A stretch of DNA of 24,000 nucleotides from an uncultured bacterium. GTDB taxonomy: Bacteria; Bacillota_I; Bacilli_A; Izemoplasmatales; Izemoplasmataceae. The notes beneath the pieces are model-generated. The model was given only the letters and a program-made list of their open reading frames with translations. It was not told where the DNA came from and did not search any database. The stretch covers positions 109,418 to 133,417 of the forward strand of contig CBFCWH010000006.1 in assembly GCA_965601585.1 (NCBI GenBank). The letters run 5' to 3'. Within the stretch, counting starts at the first letter, position 1. The number at the start of each line of letters is the position of its first letter. Both the position numbers and the translations under genes were made by a program. This document shows, piece by piece, positions 6,496 to 18,367 of this stretch.

Positions 6496-6524
6496 TTGAC
6501 AAAGGACATGAATAGTGTTATTAT
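6496..6524 (+). promoter_or_regulatory. Sigma-A type promoter P1 (TTGACA-17-TATTAT with TGn extension) for yhfU-yhfT-amidase
   Basis: TTGACA at 6496-6501, a 17-nt spacer, TG at 6516-6517, TATTAT at 6519-6524. It lies about 75 nt upstream of ATG 6598. Confidence 0.75.
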
Positions 6525-6525
6525 G

Positions 6526-6544
6526 AATGTACAATATTTTGTAC
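6526..6544 (+). promoter_or_regulatory. Operator O1: AATGTACAATATTTTGTAC (TGTACA-N6-TGTACA)
   Basis: This 19-nt string is identical to 9386-9404. It starts 2 nt after the -10 box, so it overlaps the expected transcription start. The TGTACA half-sites are themselves palindromic. Confidence 0.7.
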
Positions 6545-6597
6545 AACGAATAATTGAGAAGGAAAATGCCAAATTCAAAATTTGGTAAGGTGAAAAA

Positions 6598-6957
6598 ATG
6601 GTTAAAATAGTAGTCGGTGGACAAATAGATAAAAAGAGAATTAGAGATATTATTGTTACTTACTCTGGTGATAAGGCAACTGTAGACGTATTAGGGGATT
6701 TAGATGCCGCAATGGCGATGCAAACAGGACAATACGACTATTATATTGGTGCTTGTAATACTGGTGGAGGTGGAGCTTTAGCAATGGCAATCGCTATTTT
6801 AGGATTAGATCAATGTGCTACATTATCAATGCCTGGAAAAATTCTATCTGATGAAAAGATTAAAGAAGAAGTAGAATCAGGAAAAATTGCATTTGGGTTC
6901 ACTGCGCAAGATGCAGATAACGTGTTATCTGTCGTTCTTCCGCTCATTATAAAATAA
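6598..6957 (+). CDS. yhfU: YhfU-like small soluble protein (DUF2620 family), 119 aa
   Basis: SD AAGGTGA precedes the ATG. Its size and its position next to a YhfT-like membrane protein match the E. coli yhfU/yhfT pair. It has a glycine-rich loop, YYIGACNTGGGGALAMA. Confidence 0.65.
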   Translation: MVKIVVGGQIDKKRIRDIIVTYSGDKATVDVLGDLDAAMAMQTGQYDYYIGACNTGGGGALAMAIAILGLDQCATLSMPGKILSDEKIKEEVESGKIAFGFTAQDADNVLSVVLPLIIK

Positions 6958-6980
6958 AGACATAATTTGGAGGTTAATTA

Positions 6981-8264
6981 ATGGAACTTATTATCATTGG
7001 TTTGTTAGGTGCTCTCGCTTCAATACTAGCAAACAAGCAAATTGCCGTATTTCATGATGGGTTTAGACCTATCGTAGGGAATTATTTAAACGGTAAAATC
7101 GACAAGAAGACACTCGGACTTACAAGTTTCGCACTGTCATTTGGATTAGTTATTGGGTTTGGTTTACCATTCTCAATCGGGAAATCAATTATTTTAATTC
7201 ACTGTATCTTATTAGCTACAGATATAATTGGTTCAGTATCACCTACAGGCAAAAAAGGTTTAATTGTCTCAGGTGTAATTGGTGGATTATTTGGTATAGG
7301 ACTTAGTTTAGGATTAGATGTGATTATCGATGCATTTAGTTATTTACCTTATAACTTCTTACCTCATATTGGTAGTGTTGGGAAACCTGTAGTTGTAGCA
7401 TTCGCTGTATTCCCTGCTTTAGCAGTAGCTTTACAACATGATTTCAAGAAAGGACTTTATACTTTAGGAGCAATCTTTGCAACAATGGTATTAGTTAATA
7501 AATTTGGATCATTCAACATTTCTGGAAATACTGTTAAATTAAGTATGGAAGGTATGGGATTATTAGTTGGTGTAATCATGATGATTGTATTTGCAATCAA
7601 AACTGGAGAAAAAACTACTTCAAACCAACAATTAGTAAGTATCTTCGCTACAAACGTAGATAGAATAAAGAAAAACTGGCTATGGTTAGTAATAATGGGT
7701 GCGTTAGTATCTGCAGCAACAGCTGCAACAATCATTGCTGGAGACCCTATTTCATTAAACTTAATGGCAGAAGGTAAAATGAGTGAAGCTGGATTAGCAG
7801 CATTAGCAAGAGGTATTGGATTTGTACCACTTATCTTTACAACAGCTATTGCAACTGGTGTTTACGCACCTGCTGGTGTAACATTTGTCTTCGCAATTGG
7901 TATCTTTACTGGTAATCCATTCCTTGCGTTTGTATTAGGTGGAGCTATGATTGCATTAGAATTACTAGCATTAAGTGGAGCAGCAAGCTTCTTAGATAGA
8001 TTCGCTGGTGTTAAAAACATGGGTGAACACATTAGAACATCTATGAATAACGTATTAGAAGTTGCATTATTAGTAGGATCAATGATTGCTGCTAATGCAA
8101 TGAGCCCTAAATTTGGATTCTTATTCGTAGTTGCCTTATATACTCTTAACAAAACAAGTAAGAAACCACTTGTTAATATCGCAGTAGGACCTGTTGCTGT
8201 AATCGCATTAGGTATCATTCTAAATGTACTAGCAGTACTTGGACTTTGGATAGTTCCTGCATAA
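6981..8264 (+). CDS. yhfT: YhfT-like polytopic membrane protein (putative transporter), 427 aa
   Basis: SD GGAGG precedes the ATG. The whole protein is highly hydrophobic and Gly/Ala-rich with many predicted TM segments. Size and context match YhfT. Confidence 0.7.
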   Translation: MELIIIGLLGALASILANKQIAVFHDGFRPIVGNYLNGKIDKKTLGLTSFALSFGLVIGFGLPFSIGKSIILIHCILLATDIIGSVSPTGKKGLIVSGVIGGLFGIGLSLGLDVIIDAFSYLPYNFLPHIGSVGKPVVVAFAVFPALAVALQHDFKKGLYTLGAIFATMVLVNKFGSFNISGNTVKLSMEGMGLLVGVIMMIVFAIKTGEKTTSNQQLVSIFATNVDRIKKNWLWLVIMGALVSAATAATIIAGDPISLNLMAEGKMSEAGLAALARGIGFVPLIFTTAIATGVYAPAGVTFVFAIGIFTGNPFLAFVLGGAMIALELLALSGAASFLDRFAGVKNMGEHIRTSMNNVLEVALLVGSMIAANAMSPKFGFLFVVALYTLNKTSKKPLVNIAVGPVAVIALGIILNVLAVLGLWIVPA

Positions 8265-8271
8265 AAATATT

Positions 8272-8295
8272 AAAGGAGTATGCAAATACTCCTTT
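8272..8295 (+). terminator. Intercistronic hairpin (possible partial terminator/attenuator) between yhfT and the amidase gene
   Basis: AAAGGAGTA (8272-8280) / TACTCCTTT (8287-8295), a 9-bp perfect stem with a 6-nt loop, followed by T-rich TCTTATTCCTT. Confidence 0.35.
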
Positions 8296-8321
8296 TCTTA
8301 TTCCTTATAGGAGTGAATACA

Positions 8322-9350
8322 ATGAAATATAGAGATATTGAAAAATACAAAAGAAGAGAACTAAGATGTTTTCAAATACCAAAAAGTATTATTAAAGCTT
8401 TTGATAGACTAAAGGAAGTTGAAACTTGTATTGCTGACAATAAACCTTTCTATATGTTAGGTGTCAAAAACACGGATTACATAACCGACGAAGTAATTAA
8501 AAAACTGCAATCAAATAACTACTTTCCCTTTAGCATTGATAAGATGTCTAGAGGTGGCAGAGCGGTAGACATTGATTTAATCAATCCCATCACGGGTAAA
8601 GTCATGACTGGATCTTCAAGTGGAACAGCTATCAATGTATTAGAGGACATCAATGATATTGGTCTTGGTACAGATGGTGGTGGTTCAGTTTTAGCACCAG
8701 CAATGAGTTTGAATCTGTATGGAATTATCTCACCACTGTTCTATAGAGATGAAACATACATCAAGAAATCTACAGATGGAATATCCTTTGTTCCTTCACT
8801 TGGATTTATATCAAAAGATATTAAACTAATAAAGCAAACAACAAGACTGTTTATCCCTGAAACAGTAACATCAAACATAAGAGTTGTTATTCCTAAAAAA
8901 GGGAATATCATACTTGAAACAGGGCGAGATGTAAATGAAACTATTTCATCAAACTTGAGCCGTTCTGGAATTGAAGTTGAAGAAGTCATATATCCAAACA
9001 TATTTGGAGACAGACAACCTAATATATCTTTTCTATCTGAGATGTTAAATAAGTATGATGTTATTCTCTCATATGAGGGACCAATTGATTACTATGGATT
9101 TGGAGACTCAGTATTTGGATTATTTAATGATGTATCGAGGAATGACCAGGAGAAATCAATGAAAGGTCTTATTCGAGTTGTAAATATGGTGGAAGCATCA
9201 GCCTTAGTGGTACCAGCAAACGATTTTTCGAGTGGGTATGTTATAATCGCTAAATCAACACAAAAAGGTCTTCAATGCCTTTTCGAGATTGAGACAAAAC
9301 TCACAAATAAACTATCTAATACTTTATATGATAGATACTTCACTATATAG
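8322..9350 (+). CDS. Compact amidase-signature (AS) family hydrolase-like protein, 342 aa
   Basis: SD AGGAG (8309-8313) lies 8 nt before ATG 8322. The track start at 8280 sits 1 nt after an SD-like sequence that is buried in the hairpin. TGSSSGTAINVLEDINDIGLGTDGGGSVLAPA (nt 8607-8702; GSSSG at 8610-8624) follows the order and spacing of the classical AS core GGSSGG...G[ST]DxGGS[IV]RxPA. Confidence 0.55.
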   Translation: MKYRDIEKYKRRELRCFQIPKSIIKAFDRLKEVETCIADNKPFYMLGVKNTDYITDEVIKKLQSNNYFPFSIDKMSRGGRAVDIDLINPITGKVMTGSSSGTAINVLEDINDIGLGTDGGGSVLAPAMSLNLYGIISPLFYRDETYIKKSTDGISFVPSLGFISKDIKLIKQTTRLFIPETVTSNIRVVIPKKGNIILETGRDVNETISSNLSRSGIEVEEVIYPNIFGDRQPNISFLSEMLNKYDVILSYEGPIDYYGFGDSVFGLFNDVSRNDQEKSMKGLIRVVNMVEASALVVPANDFSSGYVIIAKSTQKGLQCLFEIETKLTNKLSNTLYDRYFTI

Positions 9351-9353
9351 CAT

Positions 9354-9382
9354 TTGACTAAACATCAAATTTCTTTTATAAT
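9354..9382 (+). promoter_or_regulatory. Sigma-A type promoter P2 (TTGACT-17-TATAAT) for yhfZ-yhfY-php-yhfS-yhfX-yhfW-nagB
   Basis: TTGACT at 9354-9359, a 17-nt spacer, and consensus TATAAT at 9377-9382. Confidence 0.8.
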
Positions 9383-9385
9383 TAA

Positions 9386-9404
9386 AATGTACAATATTTT
9401 GTAC
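9386..9404 (+). promoter_or_regulatory. Operator O2: AATGTACAATATTTTGTAC
   Basis: Exact 19-nt repeat of 6526-6544. It starts 4 nt after the -10 box and ends just before the SD AAGGAGG of the regulator gene. Confidence 0.7.
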
Positions 9405-9418
9405 TATAAGGAGGAAAT

Positions 9419-10333
9419 ATGGTTCTAGAATATAATAAAACATCACAAGTGGTGTTAGAAATAGTAAAAGATTTATTCACGTTAGATATTGGAGATAAGA
9501 TGAAATCTGTAAGAGCATATGTGCAATTACTAGATTCATCACAAGGTACTGTGCAAAATGCAATAAACTACTTAATTGAAACAGGTGGTATTGCTATAGA
9601 TAAACGTGGTTCACAAGGAAGCTATTTGACGAAATTTGATAAGAACATTGTATTATCGTTAATTGGAAAACAGTACATTACTGGTTGTATGCCTTTACCT
9701 TATTCAAAAAGGTATGAAGGAATCGCATCAGGATTAAGTGGACTTGGAAATGATGTAATGAGATTTCATTTAATGTATATGAGAGGTTCTACAAACCGTT
9801 TATCAAGATTAAACGAAGGTACTGTAGATTATGCGATTACTTCACATTCTGCAGCTCTAAGAGCAATACAATCAGGAATGCAATTTGAAATAGTCAAAAC
9901 ATTTGGAGAAAACTCATTCGTTTCGAAGCATGTTCTTGTGAAATCAAGATCATTTAACGGAGAGATCGATGAGAACACGATTTTAGGTATTGATAAAACA
10001 TCTATCGACCAAGTTGAAATCGCAAAACTTCTTGAGAAGAAGATTAGGATTACATTGAAGTACATTAATGCAAGTCAAATCCATAAGTATTTAGATAATG
10101 GAGAAATTGATGCAACAATTTGGAACTATGACGAAATTGCTGAAAAACAATTAAATTATGATTATCTGAATTTAGATTTTATAGAAGGTCTAGGTAAGTT
10201 TAGCGAAACTGTAATTGTAATCAAATCAGATGATCATTTCATGAGAAAAATCATGCAAGAAGAAGTAAACGTAGAAGAAATACTAAAGATTCAAAAAGAT
10301 GTAATAAATGGAATAATAACACCTATTTACTAA
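9419..10333 (+). CDS. yhfZ: YhfZ-like transcriptional regulator (N-terminal GntR-like wHTH plus C-terminal ligand-binding domain), 304 aa
   Basis: SD AAGGAGG precedes the ATG. SVRAYVQLLDSSQGTVQNAINYLIETGGIAIDKRGSQGSYL is a winged-HTH pattern. The remainder looks like an alpha/beta binding domain. Size and context match YhfZ. Confidence 0.7.
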   Translation: MVLEYNKTSQVVLEIVKDLFTLDIGDKMKSVRAYVQLLDSSQGTVQNAINYLIETGGIAIDKRGSQGSYLTKFDKNIVLSLIGKQYITGCMPLPYSKRYEGIASGLSGLGNDVMRFHLMYMRGSTNRLSRLNEGTVDYAITSHSAALRAIQSGMQFEIVKTFGENSFVSKHVLVKSRSFNGEIDENTILGIDKTSIDQVEIAKLLEKKIRITLKYINASQIHKYLDNGEIDATIWNYDEIAEKQLNYDYLNLDFIEGLGKFSETVIVIKSDDHFMRKIMQEEVNVEEILKIQKDVINGIITPIY

Positions 10334-10343
10334 AGGAGTACTT

Positions 10344-10709
10344 ATGAATAGTCAAACAAAATTAAAATTAAACATATTAAAAGAAAAACAAGTAGTATCA
10401 GAAGCTACAGTAGGGAAAGTATTTATCATCGAGAAACTACTTCGAGAAGCGGTTAAAAACATTGAAAGTTTAGATACTGATTTTATGTATACTCATCTAT
10501 CAATGGCGATTAATAGAGCTGATAAAAACGAGCAACTTACTGAAGACAACATAATAATTAGAGAACAACTTGAAATAAGCGAGTTCTTCAACGAAGCAAC
10601 AGAACTTCTTCAAACAGCATCAACACTAATTAATATTGAGTTTAGTCCAGCAGAACAAACTATGATTTTAGCTCATTTCTGTAATATGATATCTCAAAGA
10701 GGTGAGTAG
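10344..10709 (+). CDS. yhfY: YhfY-like stand-alone PRD-domain protein, 121 aa
   Basis: SD AAAGGAG precedes the ATG. The protein is all-helical, with two His in PRD-like contexts: THLSMAINR (His codon at nt 10494) and LAHFCNM (nt 10674). Size and context match YhfY. Confidence 0.6.
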   Translation: MNSQTKLKLNILKEKQVVSEATVGKVFIIEKLLREAVKNIESLDTDFMYTHLSMAINRADKNEQLTEDNIIIREQLEISEFFNEATELLQTASTLINIEFSPAEQTMILAHFCNMISQRGE

Positions 10710-10710
10710 T

Positions 10711-11589
10711 ATGAATCACAATGGTTATACCTTGATGCATGAACATCTAACAATCGATTTATCTCGAATTAAAGGTGATCCTGACACAATACTCGATGAC
10801 ATTGATGACACCATAAACGAGTTTAAGGAACTTTACAATAACGGAGTAAGAAACATCTTAGATGTTACAAATCACGAAATGGGTCGAGATGACGAATCAA
10901 TTATGCGTATTCAACAGGAAACAGGAATACATATCATAACTTCAACAGGGTACTATAAAGACCCTTTTCTATCAGATGAATATATAAATAAAAGTACAAC
11001 ACAATTAGCTGAGCAATTTATCGAAGAGTTAAATAATGGCTTTAACTCATCATTGAATATACCTAAAGTTATAGGTGAAATTGGGACTAGTAAAAATGAA
11101 ATGACACCAAATGAAAAAAAATTGTTTCAAGCTACAAGCATCGCTCAAATGAAAACTGGATGTGTAATATATACGCACACAACTCTAGGTACCTATGGAC
11201 TTGAGCAAGTAGATTTCTTTAAAGCACAAGGTGTTGAATTAAACAAAGTTATAATAGGGCATGTAGATTTATCAGGTAATAAAGAATACATTACTAAACT
11301 ACTTAAAACTGGAGTAAACGTTGGATTTGATACGATAGGGAAAATAAATTACATGAGAGACGAAATACGTGCTGAAATACTTAAACATATCCAGGATATA
11401 GGAATGATTGATCAAGTTGTTCTATCACTTGATATAACAAGAAAATCTCATTTCAAAGTACATGGTGGAATCGGATACAACTACCTCTTCACAAACTTCA
11501 TTCCTTTGTTAAAAGAATATGGGATTACAGAAGAAAGTATCGATAAAATGTTAAGGCAAAATCCAAACCGACTTTTAGGAGGAAAATAA
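10711..11589 (+). CDS. php: Phosphotriesterase homology protein (amidohydrolase-superfamily, PTE family), 292 aa
   Basis: GYTLMHEHL at the N-terminus. All binuclear-metal ligand contexts are present: HEH, GEIGTS, YTHT, IGHVD, SLDIT. It is collinear with my recollection of E. coli Php. ATG 10711 follows SD AAGAGGTGA, and the track's GTG at 10702 is too close to that SD. Confidence 0.9.
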   Translation: MNHNGYTLMHEHLTIDLSRIKGDPDTILDDIDDTINEFKELYNNGVRNILDVTNHEMGRDDESIMRIQQETGIHIITSTGYYKDPFLSDEYINKSTTQLAEQFIEELNNGFNSSLNIPKVIGEIGTSKNEMTPNEKKLFQATSIAQMKTGCVIYTHTTLGTYGLEQVDFFKAQGVELNKVIIGHVDLSGNKEYITKLLKTGVNVGFDTIGKINYMRDEIRAEILKHIQDIGMIDQVVLSLDITRKSHFKVHGGIGYNYLFTNFIPLLKEYGITEESIDKMLRQNPNRLLGGK

Positions 11590-12683
11590 TGAATACATAT
11601 CCATTAGAAAGTTTGACAGTAAAAGATGCAAAGAATTTACAGTTTCGCATCATTGATGAAATAACAAAAGAGTTTAGAGGATATGACATTCTCTCAAGAG
11701 GTGATTTAGGAGTTCGACAACCCGAAAATATTCCCTTAACTACAAGTAAAGTTGAAACTGTAATAAGTAAAATATTCCATGCACAAGCAGCAATGCTTCT
11801 ACGTGGTTCTGGAACAAACGCAATTAGACAAACTTTATCATTACTATGTGAAACTAATAAAACAGTATTAGTACACGTCGCACCAATATACCCTACAACA
11901 GAACACACATTGAAAATGATTGGAGCAGATATAGTTTACGCTGATTTCAATGATGAATTATCGATTGAGAATGTAATTAAGGACAATCCAAGCATCAAAA
12001 CAGCAATAGTTCAAATCACAAGGCAAAAACTATATGATAGATATAGCACAAGTGAGGTAATTAGAACTATTCAGAAAACTAATTGTGAAATCAACATAAT
12101 TACTGATGATAATTATGCAGTATTCAAAATCCCTCAAATAGGATGTGAAACTGGGTCAGATATATCAGCGTTCTCAACCTTTAAACTTCTGGGACCAGAA
12201 GGAATCGGATGTATCGTTGGAAACAAAGATATAATTGAAAAAATCAAAAAAATGAATTACTCAGGTGGTAGTCAAGTACAAGGACATGAAGCTCTAGATG
12301 TTTTAAGAGGATTCGTATACGCACCCGTATCTCTTGCCATTCAAGCAGAAGTAATTAATGAAGTAAACGATTATATCAACACCACTGGCGTTGAAGGTGT
12401 AGAGAAATGTTATATTGCGAATGCACAATCAAAAGTACTAATTATCAAATTAAAGAATGCGAACGCACAAGAAGTATTACGTGAGTCTGAAAAACTAGGA
12501 GCATTACCTCATCCTGTGGGAGCCGAATCAAAATATGAGTTTTCTCCAATGTTTTATCGTGCATCAGGGACATTCAGAAAAGAGGATCCTAACGCCATTA
12601 ATACGTTGATCCGTATAAACCCGAATCGTTCAGGTTCACAAACAATTTTACGTATTCTCAAAGACGCAATACGCAATGCATAG
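11589..12683 (+). CDS. yhfS: YhfS-like fold-type-I PLP-dependent enzyme (SelA/aminotransferase-like), 364 aa
   Basis: The start overlaps the php stop (TAATG), implying translational coupling. SAFSTFKLLGPEGIG resembles the Schiff-base Lys region of SelA-like PLP enzymes. Size and context match YhfS. Confidence 0.65.
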   Translation: MNTYPLESLTVKDAKNLQFRIIDEITKEFRGYDILSRGDLGVRQPENIPLTTSKVETVISKIFHAQAAMLLRGSGTNAIRQTLSLLCETNKTVLVHVAPIYPTTEHTLKMIGADIVYADFNDELSIENVIKDNPSIKTAIVQITRQKLYDRYSTSEVIRTIQKTNCEINIITDDNYAVFKIPQIGCETGSDISAFSTFKLLGPEGIGCIVGNKDIIEKIKKMNYSGGSQVQGHEALDVLRGFVYAPVSLAIQAEVINEVNDYINTTGVEGVEKCYIANAQSKVLIIKLKNANAQEVLRESEKLGALPHPVGAESKYEFSPMFYRASGTFRKEDPNAINTLIRINPNRSGSQTILRILKDAIRNA

Positions 12684-12695
12684 AGGAGTGATTTC

Positions 12696-13838
12696 ATGTT
12701 TTTAGACAAGCTAATAAAGGAAAATCAATTACTCATTGATTATTCTTTAATGATGCATAAACAAGGCGTTTTCTTACCAGATACCTATGTAATTGACATA
12801 GATCAAGTTATCGAAAATGCAAAAAGAATATTAAATGAATGTGGGAGCGATATAACCCCATACTTCATGCTAAAGCAATTAGGACGTAATCCATATATTG
12901 CAAAGAAACTTATTAACCTTGGATATAGTGGTGCAGTCGCTGTTGACTTCAAGGACGTAATAACATTGATGGAGAATGACATTCCAATACGTCATGTTGG
13001 ACATTTGGTTCAAATTCCATCAAAACTAATTCAAATGGTACTTGAGTATGGTGTTGAGTTCATAACGGTCTATAGTTATGAAAAAGCAGCAGAAATAAGT
13101 AAAGTAGCAAAAAAATTAAACATCACCCAAAAATTATTTGTCAAGATATATTCATCAAAGGAACATCTTTACAATGGACAATATTCAGGATTTCACAAAA
13201 ATGAAGCAATAAGACAAATTAAGGAAATCAATATATTACCTAATGTACAAGTAGAGGGATTAACAACTTTCCCTGCATTTATATACTCTCAAGATAAAGA
13301 TGACGTTGTCGAAACAGAAAACTTACATGCATTACTACAAGTAAAAGATGAACTACAAAAGGAAAACATTCACATAAGTGAAGTCAATCTTCCATCATCA
13401 AACTGTGTATACAACATACCTCTTGCAAAATCCTATGGCGCTACTTCAGTAGAACCAGGACATGGACTTTCAGGTACAACAATGTTACATCAAGATCATA
13501 GTTTAGATGAAAAAATTAGTTATTTATATTTATCAGAAGTATCTCATACTTTTGATAGTGATTCGTATGTATATGGAGGAGGGTTCTACGCTAGAGGTAA
13601 CTTATCAAAAGCACTTGTTACTGTAGATAAAAAACCAGTTAAAGCATATCCTTTATCTCCTGAAAGTATTGATTATCATTTACAAATTGAAGGTATACAT
13701 AAAACAGGTAGTCCTGTAATTATGTGCTTTAGAACACAAATGTTTGTTACAAGAAGTCAAATTGCGTTAGTAGAAGGGTTACACTCAAAAGCACCTAAAA
13801 TTGTCGGAATTTATAACACACAAGGTGGGCAATTATAG
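12696..13838 (+). CDS. yhfX: YhfX-like PLP enzyme with alanine-racemase-type N-terminal barrel, 380 aa
   Basis: SD GAGGAG precedes the ATG. PYFMLKQLGRNP is a candidate PLP-Lys context near the N-terminus, as in fold-type-III enzymes. Size and context match YhfX. Confidence 0.6.
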   Translation: MFLDKLIKENQLLIDYSLMMHKQGVFLPDTYVIDIDQVIENAKRILNECGSDITPYFMLKQLGRNPYIAKKLINLGYSGAVAVDFKDVITLMENDIPIRHVGHLVQIPSKLIQMVLEYGVEFITVYSYEKAAEISKVAKKLNITQKLFVKIYSSKEHLYNGQYSGFHKNEAIRQIKEINILPNVQVEGLTTFPAFIYSQDKDDVVETENLHALLQVKDELQKENIHISEVNLPSSNCVYNIPLAKSYGATSVEPGHGLSGTTMLHQDHSLDEKISYLYLSEVSHTFDSDSYVYGGGFYARGNLSKALVTVDKKPVKAYPLSPESIDYHLQIEGIHKTGSPVIMCFRTQMFVTRSQIALVEGLHSKAPKIVGIYNTQGGQL

Positions 13839-15047
13839 ATGAAAAAATTTATTGTCTTAGTATTGGATGGATTTGGAATAGGAGCTATGAAAGATGTAGC
13901 ACTTGTAAGACCTCAAGATCAAGGTTCTAATACCGCATTGCATATCCTAAAAAATACTAATGTATCACTACCAACACTTGAACTACTCGGATTAATGAAC
14001 TCATTGAATTATCAAAGCAATACTATGAAATTTTCAAACGAAGCAGTCTATGGTTCGTCTGAATTAGCTCATTGGGGTGGAGATACATTCTTTGGTCATC
14101 AAGAGATTATGACAACAAAACCCAGAAAACCTCTTAAAATGGCATTTTCACATGTTATTGATAGAGTTGAAAAAGCATTATTAGAGGCGAATTATCCAAC
14201 GGAAAGAATCAATAGAGATGGTGTATCTTTATTATCTATAAACGATGAAATATTTATTGGAGATAATCTAGAAACCGACCTTGGACAAGTTTACAACGTA
14301 ACAACTTCATTTGACTTTGTGAATTTTTTCGATGCTAAGAAAATCGCACGAATTGTTCGGGAAAATGTAGAGGTAGCTAGAGTGATTGTTTTTGGTGGTA
14401 GACATGTAACTAAAAGTGATCTGAAAGATGCAATAGAAACAAAAGAAGGAAAATATATAGGAGTGAATGCCCCTAAGTCCAAAGTATACATAAACGGTTA
14501 TAAAGTGGAACATTTAGGGTATGGAGTGGATTCTACTGAGCAAGTTCAATCAAAACTATATGAACAGAAAAAGGTGAAAACCGCCTTTATAGGAAAAGTA
14601 GCTGATATCTGCAAGAATGACTATGGAGTTTCGTATTCCATAGTTTCTACAGAAGCAGTAATGAATAAGACAATAGAAGCAGTCCAAAGCAACTTATACG
14701 GTTTTATCTGCGCTAATGTTCAAGAAACTGATCTCGCAGGACATTCAGAAAATCCAAAAATTTACGCTGATAAACTTCAAATTGTTGATGATTATTTACC
14801 AATACTAATCAACTTGCTAAGTGATGAAGATGTGTTAGTTGTTATGGCTGATCATGGAAACGACCCAACTGTAGGTCACTCAAAACATACAAGAGAAAAT
14901 GTGCCGTTATTAATATATCGTAAGAACATAAAAAACAGACAAATCGGTACCCGTAAAACACTCGCAGATGTTGGTGCAACAGTCGCTGATTTTTGGGATG
15001 TTGATAATATTCAGTTTGGCACATCATTCTGGAATAAACTACAATAA
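13839..15047 (+). CDS. yhfW: YhfW-like phosphopentomutase-family metalloenzyme (alkaline-phosphatase superfamily mutase), 402 aa
   Basis: The ATG abuts the yhfX stop (TAGATG). DeoB-like motifs: VLVLDGFGIG, GGDTFFGHQEIM, ETDLAGHSENP, MADHGNDPT...HSKHTRENVPLLIY. Confidence 0.85.
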   Translation: MKKFIVLVLDGFGIGAMKDVALVRPQDQGSNTALHILKNTNVSLPTLELLGLMNSLNYQSNTMKFSNEAVYGSSELAHWGGDTFFGHQEIMTTKPRKPLKMAFSHVIDRVEKALLEANYPTERINRDGVSLLSINDEIFIGDNLETDLGQVYNVTTSFDFVNFFDAKKIARIVRENVEVARVIVFGGRHVTKSDLKDAIETKEGKYIGVNAPKSKVYINGYKVEHLGYGVDSTEQVQSKLYEQKKVKTAFIGKVADICKNDYGVSYSIVSTEAVMNKTIEAVQSNLYGFICANVQETDLAGHSENPKIYADKLQIVDDYLPILINLLSDEDVLVVMADHGNDPTVGHSKHTRENVPLLIYRKNIKNRQIGTRKTLADVGATVADFWDVDNIQFGTSFWNKLQ

Positions 15048-15060
15048 TAGTGAGGCAAAA

Positions 15061-15783
15061 ATGAAACTACTAATTTCTAAAGATTATAACGAACTTTCAA
15101 AGAATGCATTTGAAGTATTCAATAATATAGTTAAAGACAAAAAGAACCCAAGAGTAGGGCTTGCAACAGGAAGTTCACCATTAGGACTATATAATCAAAT
15201 TATCGAGAATTATATAAACACAAGTGCAACATATAGTAATTTTGAAATATTCAATTTAGATGAATATATAGGATTAGAGGATAATAATCCGAATAAGTAT
15301 AGTGCTTTTCTATACGAAAATATTTTAGATAAGGCGAACTTTGATACCACAAAAATCGACTTAATTCTTAATAACGAACACTCTGTTGAAGATGAATGTG
15401 AAAGATATCACAAAAATCTAATTGGTAATCCTTTAGATGTTCAGATTCTTGGATTAGGGGCAAACTGTCATATAGGGTTTAATGAACCTGGGACAAGTTT
15501 TGATTCTACAACTCACATTGTGGAATTACAAGAGAAAACAAGAAAAGATAATGCTCGTTTCTTTAACTCAATAGATGAAGTACCAACAAAAGCTATAACA
15601 GTTGGAATCAAAGATATCATGAGCGCAGACAATATCATTTTGGTCGCTTCTGGGAAAGATAAAGCAGAAGCAGTTAGAAAAATGCTTAAAGATGAGATAA
15701 ATAATAATTGTCCTGCCTCAATACTACGTGTACATAAATCTGTTACCGTGATTATAGACGAGGATGCTTCTCAATTTCTGTAA
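15061..15783 (+). CDS. nagB: Glucosamine-6-phosphate deaminase/isomerase family protein (NagB-like), 240 aa
   Basis: MKLLISKDYNELS..., GLATGSSPLGLY, FNLDEYIGL, LGLGANCHIGFNEPG, ITVGIKDIM. The track start at 14968 overlaps yhfW, and ATG 15061 follows a GTGAGG SD. Confidence 0.85.
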   Translation: MKLLISKDYNELSKNAFEVFNNIVKDKKNPRVGLATGSSPLGLYNQIIENYINTSATYSNFEIFNLDEYIGLEDNNPNKYSAFLYENILDKANFDTTKIDLILNNEHSVEDECERYHKNLIGNPLDVQILGLGANCHIGFNEPGTSFDSTTHIVELQEKTRKDNARFFNSIDEVPTKAITVGIKDIMSADNIILVASGKDKAEAVRKMLKDEINNNCPASILRVHKSVTVIIDEDASQFL

Positions 15784-15832: not shown

Positions 15833-15871
15833 AGAAAGACATAATAGAAATCAGTTCTATTATGTCTTTCT
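15833..15871. terminator. Perfect 17-bp stem-loop after nagB (orientation ambiguous)
   Basis: AGAAAGACATAATAGAA (15833-15849) / TTCTATTATGTCTTTCT (15855-15871) with a 5-nt loop. The T-tract (TTTAATTTT) is on the minus-strand side. The plus-strand side is followed by AAAATATT. Confidence 0.55.
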
Positions 15872-17030: not shown

Positions 17031-17059
17031 TTGACAGTGAAAAAATTAGGTGATATACT
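17031..17059 (+). promoter_or_regulatory. Sigma-A type promoter (TTGACA-17-TGaTATACT) of the YtrA-ABC operon
   Basis: TTGACA at 17031-17036, a 17-nt spacer, TG at 17051-17052, TATACT at 17054-17059. The track ORF start at 17031 falls inside the -35 box. Confidence 0.7.
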
Positions 17060-17111
17060 ACGTTACATAAGTAGTGTAGTGGTTCACATTTTACAGAAAG
17101 AGGTGGTATTT

Positions 17112-17480
17112 GTGATTATATCTACAGATAGTACAACTCCAATATACATGCAAATTGCCAATGGAATTGAAACTGATATCCTAAATGGCTTACTACAGGA
17201 AGGTGAGAGTGCGTACTCTCAATATCAAATATCAAAGCAGTATTCAATAAACCCAGCAACTGCTGCAAAGGGAATCAATGTTTTGGTAAATGAGGGGATT
17301 TTATTTAAGAAGAGAGGGTTAGGAATGTTTGTGTCTGAAGGAGCAGTAGAATTGATTATGAGTAAAAGAAAACAAGTATTTTTATCGACAACTATTGAGA
17401 ATTTTATGCAGGAAGCAGGGAAACTTGGGATTAACAAGTCGGAACTGAAAAAGATGATAGATGACTATAAGGAGGACTAA
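17112..17480 (+). CDS. GntR-family transcriptional regulator, YtrA subfamily, 122 aa
   Basis: GTG 17112 follows SD AAAGAGGTGG. PIYMQIANGIETDILNGLLQEGESAYSQYQISKQYSINPATAAKGINVLVNEGILFKKRGLGMFV is the canonical YtrA-type wHTH, followed by a short helical C-terminus. Confidence 0.85.
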   Translation: MIISTDSTTPIYMQIANGIETDILNGLLQEGESAYSQYQISKQYSINPATAAKGINVLVNEGILFKKRGLGMFVSEGAVELIMSKRKQVFLSTTIENFMQEAGKLGINKSELKKMIDDYKED

Positions 17481-17482
17481 TA

Positions 17483-18367
17483 ATGGATATAATTAGTGCA
17501 AAAGCATTACGTAAAACATATAAAGATGTTGTTGCCTTGGATAATTTAGATGTTGATATTCAAGAAAACAAAATTATAGGTTTAATTGGTAAAAATGGTG
17601 CTGGTAAAAGCACACTTCTCAAAATAATTGCTGGTAGAATTCGTCAATCCTCAGGAGAACTACACGTTTTAGATAATGACGTATTTGACAATCTTGAAGT
17701 ATTGTCTAAAATGATTTTTGTAGATGAGGAGTCCTCATATAATACTACATACAAGGTACAAGATATTTTAGATTTAGCAAAGACATACTATACGTCTTGG
17801 GATGATGTATTAGCGAATAAGTTAATCGATCACTTTAACCTAAAAAAGGATAAGAAGTTTAGAAAACTCTCAAGAGGAATGAGAACACAGGTGAATGTAA
17901 TTGTTGGAATCTGTAGTAGAATGCCAATTACTATATTGGATGAACCTACTTTAGGATTAGACCCTGCATTTAGACAAGATTTTTATCATATTCTTCTAAA
18001 TGACTTTATGAAGCATCCAAGAACTATTATAATATCAAGTCATTTGCTGAATGAAATTGAGATGTTACTAGAAGAGATCATACTGATAGATAAGGGAACT
18101 CTAGTTATGCAAACATCAATGGAAGAGTTCAGTAACTATTCAGTATTCCTAAGTGGTAGAACCGATTTCCTAAGTGATTTCACTAAAAATAAAGAGGTTC
18201 TAAGTACTAGTGATTTTGTTAGAACGTCTGAATATATTATCAAAAACAATCTCAATGAGGAAGAGTTGTCTTTACTGAAACGAAACGAAGTTCAAGTAAA
18301 GAGTGTCTCACCACAAGATTTATTCATTTATCTAACTAATAAAGGGGTGAAGTTTGATGAATTCTAG
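17483..18367 (+). CDS. ABC transporter ATP-binding protein, 294 aa
   Basis: Walker A GKNGAGKST, signature variant LSRGMRTQ, Walker B ILDEPTLGLD, H-loop SSHLL. SD AAGGAGG precedes the ATG. Confidence 0.9.
   Translation: MDIISAKALRKTYKDVVALDNLDVDIQENKIIGLIGKNGAGKSTLLKIIAGRIRQSSGELHVLDNDVFDNLEVLSKMIFVDEESSYNTTYKVQDILDLAKTYYTSWDDVLANKLIDHFNLKKDKKFRKLSRGMRTQVNVIVGICSRMPITILDEPTLGLDPAFRQDFYHILLNDFMKHPRTIIISSHLLNEIEMLLEEIILIDKGTLVMQTSMEEFSNYSVFLSGRTDFLSDFTKNKEVLSTSDFVRTSEYIIKNNLNEEELSLLKRNEVQVKSVSPQDLFIYLTNKGVKFDEF

Follow-up and report, generated by a model that had tools for sequence, protein, structure and literature searches.

What acts at an identical 19-nt sequence that stands just past two promoters of one gene cluster, and which genes does it serve? 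The question is raised by a 24,000-nt stretch of DNA from an uncultured bacterium of the family Izemoplasmataceae (GenBank assembly GCA_965601585.1, contig CBFCWH010000006.1, forward-strand positions 109,418 to 133,417). This whole stretch is referred to below as the window, with position 1 its first letter, and it carries a yhf gene cluster that includes the gene of the regulator YhfZ. Comparison with related loci indicates that the two copies are probably operators of this locally encoded regulator, at which it would repress both promoters. The features on which the argument turns are as follows, the promoters and operators being predictions:

6496..6524, + strand: promoter P1 of the yhfU-yhfT-amidase unit, with -35 TTGACA at 6496-6501 and extended -10 TGtTATTAT at 6516-6524 (score 11/12).
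6524..6549, no strand assigned: operator O1, a 16-bp dyad (6529-6544) in a 26-bp frame, 4 nt past the -10 hexamer.
9354..9382, + strand: promoter P2 of the yhfZ operon, with -35 TTGACT at 9354-9359 and -10 TATAAT at 9377-9382 (score 11/12).
9384..9409, no strand assigned: operator O2, a 16-bp dyad (9389-9404) in a 26-bp frame, 6 nt past the -10 hexamer.
9419-10333, + strand: yhfZ, the first gene after P2, encoding a 304-aa protein with HTH_41 and YhfZ_C domains.

A search of the window placed the 19-mer AATGTACAATATTTTGTAC exactly at 6526-6544 and 9386-9404, i.e. twice, as the initial annotation of this DNA had reported; the copies begin 2 nt (P1) and 4 nt (P2) past the -10 hexamers, which agrees with the 2–4 nt given there. 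With up to three mismatches allowed, the window holds three matches where 0.06 are expected, and 100 dinucleotide-preserving shuffles never gave as many. The third of these, with three mismatches (17756-17774), falls within an ABC-ATPase open reading frame (ORF) and looks like a chance occurrence. A scan of the whole 2.18-Mb genome, which had been proposed with the annotation, returned the 17-mer core (up to two mismatches) at the two window places only. It could be argued that the repeat is a chance match or the functionless remnant of a local duplication, given the AT-richness of the region, in which short AT-rich matches come up often. The probability of this is negligible in our view, considering the result of the shuffles, the unrelated flanks of the two copies, the retention of both sites where YhfZ is only 68–77% identical, and a roughly 15-fold enrichment in distant loci, both of which are described below.

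The annotation had described the unit as TGTACA-N6-TGTAC. The repeat was recovered as such, while its reading in terms of a directly repeated TGTACA, a self-complementary hexamer, did not hold: on comparative grounds, the meaningful unit is the inverted repeat GTACAA-N4-TTGTAC. The corresponding 16-bp dyads, GTACAATATTTTGTAC, contain an invariant core, TACA-N6-TGTA, and lie within a palindrome of 22–26 bp. The start of the window 19-mer, AAT-G-TACAA, is exactly the left flank of the family consensus given below, and the dyad of O2 ends 3 nt ahead of the ribosome-binding site AAGGAGG (9408-9414).

The comparative data begin with close relatives. Among 76 other genomes of the same family, yhfZ was found in just two, designated G071 (same genus, YhfZ 77% identical) and G020 (68% identical). 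In 18 kb per locus, each has exactly two GTAC-N8-GTAC sites, placed as in the window, directly after the -10 boxes of the yhfU and yhfZ promoters. All 12 arm bases (GTACAA/TTGTAC) are invariant in the six sites of the three genomes, and the four central bases read TATT, AATG, TATT, TATT, AATA and GATT. Invariant columns make up 73 of ∼161 in the alignment of the yhfU promoter and 68 of 122 in that of the yhfZ promoter, i.e. 45–56%, and the -35/-10 spacers have diverged. Arms kept amid diverged surroundings present the pattern expected of a protein-binding site under selection. Across the family, the three of 77 genomes with yhfZ carry exactly two GTACAA-N4-TTGTAC sites each, all at the locus; of the 74 genomes without yhfZ, 64 carry none, nine carry one and one (G043) carries two. 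These 11 sites are fewer than those of a reversed-pattern control and mostly have GC-rich centres (e.g. the recurring GTACAACACCTTGTAC). The presence of the dyad at both promoters in G071 and G020, together with its co-occurrence with yhfZ, lends in silico support to the earlier suggestion that YhfZ would regulate its own operon and co-control the transporter unit.

How far such a regulon extends was estimated from the window's own genome. The relaxed pattern RTACAA-N4-TTGTAY with one mismatch gave 60 matches compared with 69 for the control, and the sole other perfect match lies inside an ORF. A wider regulon in this genome was rejected, since the relaxed matches do not exceed the control and the extra perfect one is within an ORF. 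As defined by these matches, the regulon is strictly local and consists of P1 and P2.

At the level of the class, the sample comprised 401 genomes, 26 yhfZ-positive and 375 yhfZ-negative. Given as descriptive counts, the flanked pattern ATRTACA-N6-TGTAYAT was matched in 9 of the 26 and in 44 of the 375, with 41 of 401 for the reversed control. In seven of the nine matched yhfZ-positive genomes, the match is on the yhfZ contig and no more than 8 kb from the gene. This pattern misses the window's own sites, whose 3' flanks deviate. At the 26 same-class loci, where YhfZ is 27–36% identical to that of the window, dyads with up to one arm mismatch number 5 against 0.35 expected, and those within 200 nt upstream of yhfZ number 3 against 0.017.

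More distant loci were not retrieved by a locus search with a single YhfZ sequence; whole-genome searches and a profile of 28 YhfZ homologues did retrieve them, the profile yielding 80 named loci from Clostridium, Erysipelotrichaceae, Enterococcus, Carnobacterium, Paenibacillus, Oceanobacillus, Thermoanaerobacter, Leptotrichia and Chloroflexota. In these 80 loci, perfect TACAA-N4-TTGTA occurs 47 times against 3.0 expected, and perfect TACA-N6-TGTA 142 times against 28.1 expected. At least one TACA-N6-TGTA site outside the yhf ORFs is found within the cluster in 62 of the 80. Gene maps obtained by blastp against the window proteins showed that the sites track operon starts, 39 standing before yhfZ, 21 before yhfU and 18 before yhfY. 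Where yhfZ is internal (Enterococcus, Carnobacterium, Jeotgalibaca and Alkalibacterium), the sites lie ∼3.8 kb upstream, before yhfU. The dyads accompany yhf clusters in Clostridia, Bacilli and Erysipelotrichales, and the dyad that the initial annotation had expected at orthologous loci, and whose absence it would have counted against itself, is thus conserved there.

A 26-bp palindromic consensus, TcAAT-RTACAA-wwww-TTGTAY-ATTgA, was derived from 82 compiled sites. Its flanks are symmetric although they were not used in site selection, with A at -3 in 81 of the 82 sites, A at -2 of the left flank in 76, and T at +18 in 70. In most loci the coding strand is A-rich across the dyad centre (positions 5-10; TACA-AAAWAW-TGTA). 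The window's sites have a T-rich centre instead, and the G071 yhfZ site matches their reverse complement exactly; by this comparison, the centre can thus lie in either orientation. Many yhf operon leaders carry two tandem dyads that are 12, 31–35 or ∼70 nt apart (L059, L066 and L089 of Enterococcus; L071, L084, L016, L025 and L027), which suggests cooperative or looped binding in those species; unlike these leaders, the window carries single sites.

A palindrome at the start of a transcript could also act in the RNA, as a 5'-terminal stem-loop of both transcripts that serves as a stabiliser or as the target of a protein, for instance YhfY with its PRD domain. Both copies do fold as 6–7-bp hairpins (the P2 leader at -5.5 kcal/mol, z = -2.2) and both are at predicted 5' ends, and a PRD protein is encoded in the operon. 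The variation among 76 distinct sites speaks against such a stem, as asymmetries are uncompensated: the 0/15 pair consists of A and C in 25 sites and of A and T in 27, A stands opposite A at pair 5/10 in 31, and just the four TACA/TGTA pairs are always complementary, and these never vary. Furthermore, in the modal geometry the expected start comes after the conserved left flank, several distant sites fall inside promoters, and the Pfam/NCBIfam scans of YhfY detected the PRD domain only and no RNA-binding domain. The RNA hairpin was rejected for lack of compensatory change, and a role in RNA appears very improbable, which returns the argument to a DNA-bound protein.

The position of the dyads relative to the promoters bears on what such a protein would do. 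P1 reads TTGACA-17-TATTAT with a TG extension at 6516-6517, and P2 reads TTGACT-17-TATAAT. Both had been called near-consensus, and both indeed score 11/12, accounting for two of just three such matches between 6000 and 17200; the third, at 17031, lies beyond the yhf locus and belongs to a GntR-like gene. The -35 and extended -10 of P1 are kept in G071 and G020 across a diverged spacer, and the TATAAT of P2 is invariant in the three genomes. It is established promoter biology that a site over ∼+1 to +20 of a strong promoter occupies the classical position for steric repression, and at these predicted promoters the dyads fall over the -10 box/transcription start region. In the distant loci, the distance from the end of the -10 to the 16-mer was counted for 52 sites with a nearby predicted promoter scoring at least 9/12. 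Its two peaks, at +4 with 7 sites and at +6 with 9, coincide with the window values, and 52% of distant sites are within -12 to +12 of a -10 box compared with 20% of control positions in the same loci. The steric-repression geometry proposed in the annotation is therefore also the modal one in distant loci.

The same positional data were used to consider whether YhfZ binds the dyads as an activator or dual regulator instead, e.g. by promoter remodelling. Some distant sites are upstream of the promoter or inside its spacer (offsets -19 to -29), which would suit this account, as would the resemblance of the YhfZ layout to LysR-type regulators such as OxyR (a full-length Foldseek match), a group whose members are often activators. 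Yet P1 and P2 should need no activation, given their 11/12 scores and the TG extension of P1, the modal site is over the start site (+4/+6 past the -10), and the LysR helix-turn-helix (HTH) family was not detected in Pfam scans. We consider activation unlikely and continue with YhfZ as a repressor.

The regulator itself had been described as YhfZ-like and GntR-like. The first description is borne out: the protein encoded at 9419-10333 matches the NCBIfam equivalog NF041241, 'GntR family transcriptional regulator YhfZ', over residues 5-304 with 271.5 bits (cutoff 260), contains PF14502 (HTH_41, 37.6 bits) and PF14503 (YhfZ_C, 181.5 bits), and is 29% identical over its full length to E. coli K-12 YhfZ, which RefSeq annotates only as a 'putative' regulator. 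The gene association of the YhfZ family (yhfU, yhfT, yhfY, php, yhfS, yhfX and yhfW) is found in the window and in most of the 80 related loci. In an AlphaFold2 model of YhfZ (pLDDT 91.5, pTM 0.85), a winged helix (∼7-73) is followed by an alpha/beta domain (75-304). The winged helix, modelled at pLDDT >90, consists of helices 7-19, 31-38 and 42-54 and strands 58-62 and 68-73, the latter forming a two-stranded wing, and has the topology of the GntR superfamily. Foldseek matched this C-terminal domain to a YhfZ fragment (PDB 2OZZ) and then to the type-2 periplasmic binding proteins MetQ, TauA and SsuA. As modelled, YhfZ is a winged helix joined to a type-2 periplasmic-binding-protein-like ligand-binding fold.

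The second description, GntR-like, holds loosely. It is favoured by the NCBIfam name and the modelled winged helix, but the Pfam GntR family (PF00392) reached 12.3 bits on the N-terminal domain (E = 0.13) against a gathering threshold of 27, and by Foldseek the effector domain is not of a recognised GntR subfamily, the classical ones being FadR, HutC, MocR, YtrA, AraR and PlmA. A weak match to a 121-aa regulatory protein, 6SBS, was also obtained (E = 0.006). The LysR HTH (Pfam HTH_1) was not reported in scans of the whole protein and of its N-terminal 80 residues at E values up to 10.

Whether YhfZ is the protein that reads the dyad can be approached through its recognition helix. YhfZ is the sole DNA-binding protein of the cluster, and no other DNA-binding gene is conserved in related clusters. 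Across Firmicutes, YhfZ has a highly conserved predicted recognition helix, [AS]-R-G-T-[VI]-Q-N-A (pattern xRGT[VI]QNAL), which reads S-Q-G-T-V-Q-N-A in the window clade; this agrees with the conservation of the operator. YhfZ of E. coli K-12 and of Leptotrichia start this helix with S-V-G-L as opposed to S-Q-G-T or A-R-G-T, and no TACA dyad was found in their yhf loci, K-12 being without TACAA-N4-TTGTA upstream of yhfZ. In K-12, two TTCA-N6-TGAA dyads stand in tandem immediately before yhfZ instead (L035 12345-12420), so the exact TACAA-N4-TTGTA motif is, from this comparison, not universal for the YhfZ family. Leptotrichia has a single TTCA-N6-TGAA in 9.2 kb (L043 5944-5967), an extended palindrome of the form AAATTTTCA-N6-TGAAAATTT that lies ∼50 nt before yhfZ. 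The TACA and TTCA dyads share the N6 spacing and differ in one arm base, in step with the helix, and this joint change is the best available evidence that YhfZ itself would read the dyad. Between Firmicutes loci with and without detected sites no difference in the recognition helix was found; many of the 26 'no site' loci of that comparison, at least eight, result from a strict filter and were recovered by the shorter core that places a site in 62 of the 80 loci.

The joint change also bears on the possibility that the dyads are operators of another transcription factor encoded elsewhere, with YhfZ binding something else. The link between YhfZ and the dyads comes from sequence comparison, and AT-rich palindromes of similar shape serve other regulators, NrdR boxes being an instance, although these need CAC/GTG arms and accompany nrd genes. 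That the half-site differs where the YhfZ helix differs is not what another factor would predict. Moreover, the dyads are confined to the yhf locus in this genome, appear at only the background rate in yhfZ-less genomes and travel with yhf clusters through Clostridia, Bacilli and Erysipelotrichales, in which no further DNA-binding gene is conserved. We give a factor other than YhfZ a slim chance.

Within the window clade, Gln stands where nearly all other Firmicute YhfZ have Arg (SSQGT compared with ARGT; residues 40-48). All six clade sites (genomes G000, G071 and G020) have G/C at the outer arm position, at which A/T predominates elsewhere (57 A compared with 22 G). Gln and the outer G may form a second helix-base correlation, one that is not strict, as some R-G-T loci also have G.

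Under the favoured explanation, a YhfZ dimer would bind each operator with one winged-helix domain per half-site, the sites of this clade having the form AATGTACAA-N4-TTGTAC around the core TACA-N6-TGTA. Each site would span ∼+1 to +20 of a near-consensus sigma-A promoter, where bound YhfZ would block RNA polymerase and jointly switch off yhfU-yhfT-amidase and yhfZ-yhfY-php-yhfS-yhfX-yhfW-nagB. A small-molecule effector, accommodated in the periplasmic-binding-protein-like C-terminal domain, would free the DNA; because the operon ends in nagB, it may be an amino-sugar derivative or an intermediate of the pathway. Several points weigh against this explanation. P1 and P2 are consensus predictions, and related genomes are not independent, so that the enrichment statistics overstate significance. 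A perfect core is missing from the cluster in 18 of the 80 distant loci, which may have variant sites or promoters beyond the fetched DNA. The correlation between helix and half-site rests on two lineages, possibly of shared ancestry, and the Pfam GntR score below threshold makes reasoning from GntR structures an analogy.

The proposed arrangement was compared with known systems. NagR and DasR (GntR/HutC) are dimeric winged-helix repressors of their own operons for amino-sugar catabolism and transport, at whose promoters they act through ∼15–16-bp, more or less palindromic dre operators; an effector alters their affinity for DNA, and NagR uses Arg-guanine contacts (PMC4333415). The local repressor-type layout proposed for YhfZ is alike, and the yhf cluster of the window also ends in nagB. 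The differences are in the effector domain, which is of the HutC type in NagR and has a type-2 periplasmic-binding-protein fold in YhfZ, in an HTH below the Pfam GntR threshold, and in an unrelated operator, the YhfZ core being TACA-N6-TGTA with an A/T centre. E. coli K-12 YhfZ and its php-yhfSTUVWXYZ cluster share with the window the regulator family (29% identity, NF041241), the gene set and N6-spaced dyads upstream of yhfZ. They differ in the half-site (TTCA) and helix start (S-V-G-L) and form a single operon with yhfZ first, whereas the window has its transporter genes apart, in an upstream unit that carries a proposed operator itself, plus additional amidase-like and nagB genes.

FadR-type GntR repressors, the prototype of the superfamily, are likewise local winged-helix dimers with palindromic, promoter-overlapping operators from which a metabolite releases them. 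The effector domain of FadR is all-helical and its operator of the TGGT-N-ACCA type; YhfZ differs in both respects. LysR-type regulators such as OxyR have an N-terminal winged helix and a type-2 periplasmic-binding-protein-like domain as YhfZ does, with ∼330 columns aligned by Foldseek, but the alignments have root-mean-square deviations of 12–15 Å and no LysR HTH was detected in YhfZ by the scans described above. LysR regulators are usually tetrameric activators that are divergently transcribed from their targets, whereas yhfZ stands at the head of the operon that it would control.

The initial annotation had stated that the family has no known operator, and the literature that we searched likewise contained no published operator or binding site for YhfZ. 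The motif would thus be a binding motif for a regulator family without one found in print. The php-yhfSTUVWXYZ cluster is conserved in E. coli and many Firmicutes and has no assigned substrate, and the operator motif offers three handles on it, namely definition of the regulon (two promoters), screening for the inducing ligand, and a testable TACA/TTCA recognition rule. A local repressor acting on its own promoter and on that of a transporter unit is in itself a textbook mechanism and an ordinary kind of switch. A bolder generalisation is possible but doubtful: that YhfZ represents a distinct regulator class (GntR-like winged helix with a type-2 periplasmic-binding-protein domain) with an operator TnCA-N6-TGnA from Firmicutes to Enterobacteria, in which the start of the helix sets the half-site (R/Q-G-T for TACA, V-G-L for TTCA). 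If true, this would provide a simple, transferable recognition code and an operator-repressor pair usable as a biosensor for the php-yhf inducer and substrate, and the substrate would probably be an amino-sugar derivative, given nagB.

The window gene calls are correct and describe a ten-gene nutrient-use cluster, with three genes after P1 and seven from yhfZ on:

6598..9350, + strand: transporter unit (yhfU, yhfT and an amidase-like gene), assigned by Pfam matches, with the same order in G071 and G020.
6598-6957, + strand: yhfU, DUF2620.
6981-8264, + strand: yhfT, YhfT.
8280-9350, + strand: amidase-like gene, Amidase signature.
10344..15783, + strand: remainder of the yhfZ operon (yhfY, php, yhfS, yhfX, yhfW and nagB).
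10344-10709, + strand: yhfY, PRD protein.
10702-11589, + strand: php, phosphotriesterase family.
11589-12683, + strand: yhfS, YhfS-like.
12696-13838, + strand: yhfX, YhfX-like.
13839-15047, + strand: yhfW, metalloenzyme superfamily.
To 15783, + strand: nagB, TIGR00502 (239 bits, cutoff 237).
15833..15871, no strand assigned: 17-bp stem-loop after nagB, scored as terminator-like on the minus strand only.

The listed nagB ORF (14968-15783, 271 aa) overlaps the end of yhfW. Because the NagB match starts only at residue 32, and with an ATG at 15061 inside this ORF that has a GTGAGG ribosome-binding site, the true gene is probably 15061-15783, encoding 240 aa, a length equal to that in G071 and G020. 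The stem-loop at 15833-15871 is likely the end of the operon. No terminator-like site follows the amidase stop (9350) before P2 begins with its -35 (9354), so transcripts from P1 may continue into the yhfZ operon.

Downstream of the operon, a short GntR/YtrA-like gene (17031-17480), with ABC-transporter genes behind it, has its own 11/12 promoter overlapping its TTG start. In G071 and G020 it shows no synteny with the yhf cluster, and a connection with the dyads is therefore unlikely.

Lastly, two stem-loops were noted in the transporter unit. A hairpin, CCAAATT-CAA-AATTTGG, lies in the yhfU leader at 6567-6587, past the operator and ahead of the ribosome-binding site AAGGTG. G071 and G020 retain it with three of its ten pairs changed on both sides, which, with three sequences compared, is weak support; its role could be in control through the leader RNA or in stabilisation. 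The other, a 10-bp stem-loop at 8272-8295 (AAAGGAGTA-TGCAAA-TACTCCTTT), lies directly 3' of the yhfT stop and is followed by TCTTATTCC. The ATG (8280) of the amidase-like ORF and its ribosome-binding site, AAAGGAG, both fall within this stem-loop, which may hide the translation start or serve as a partial terminator.

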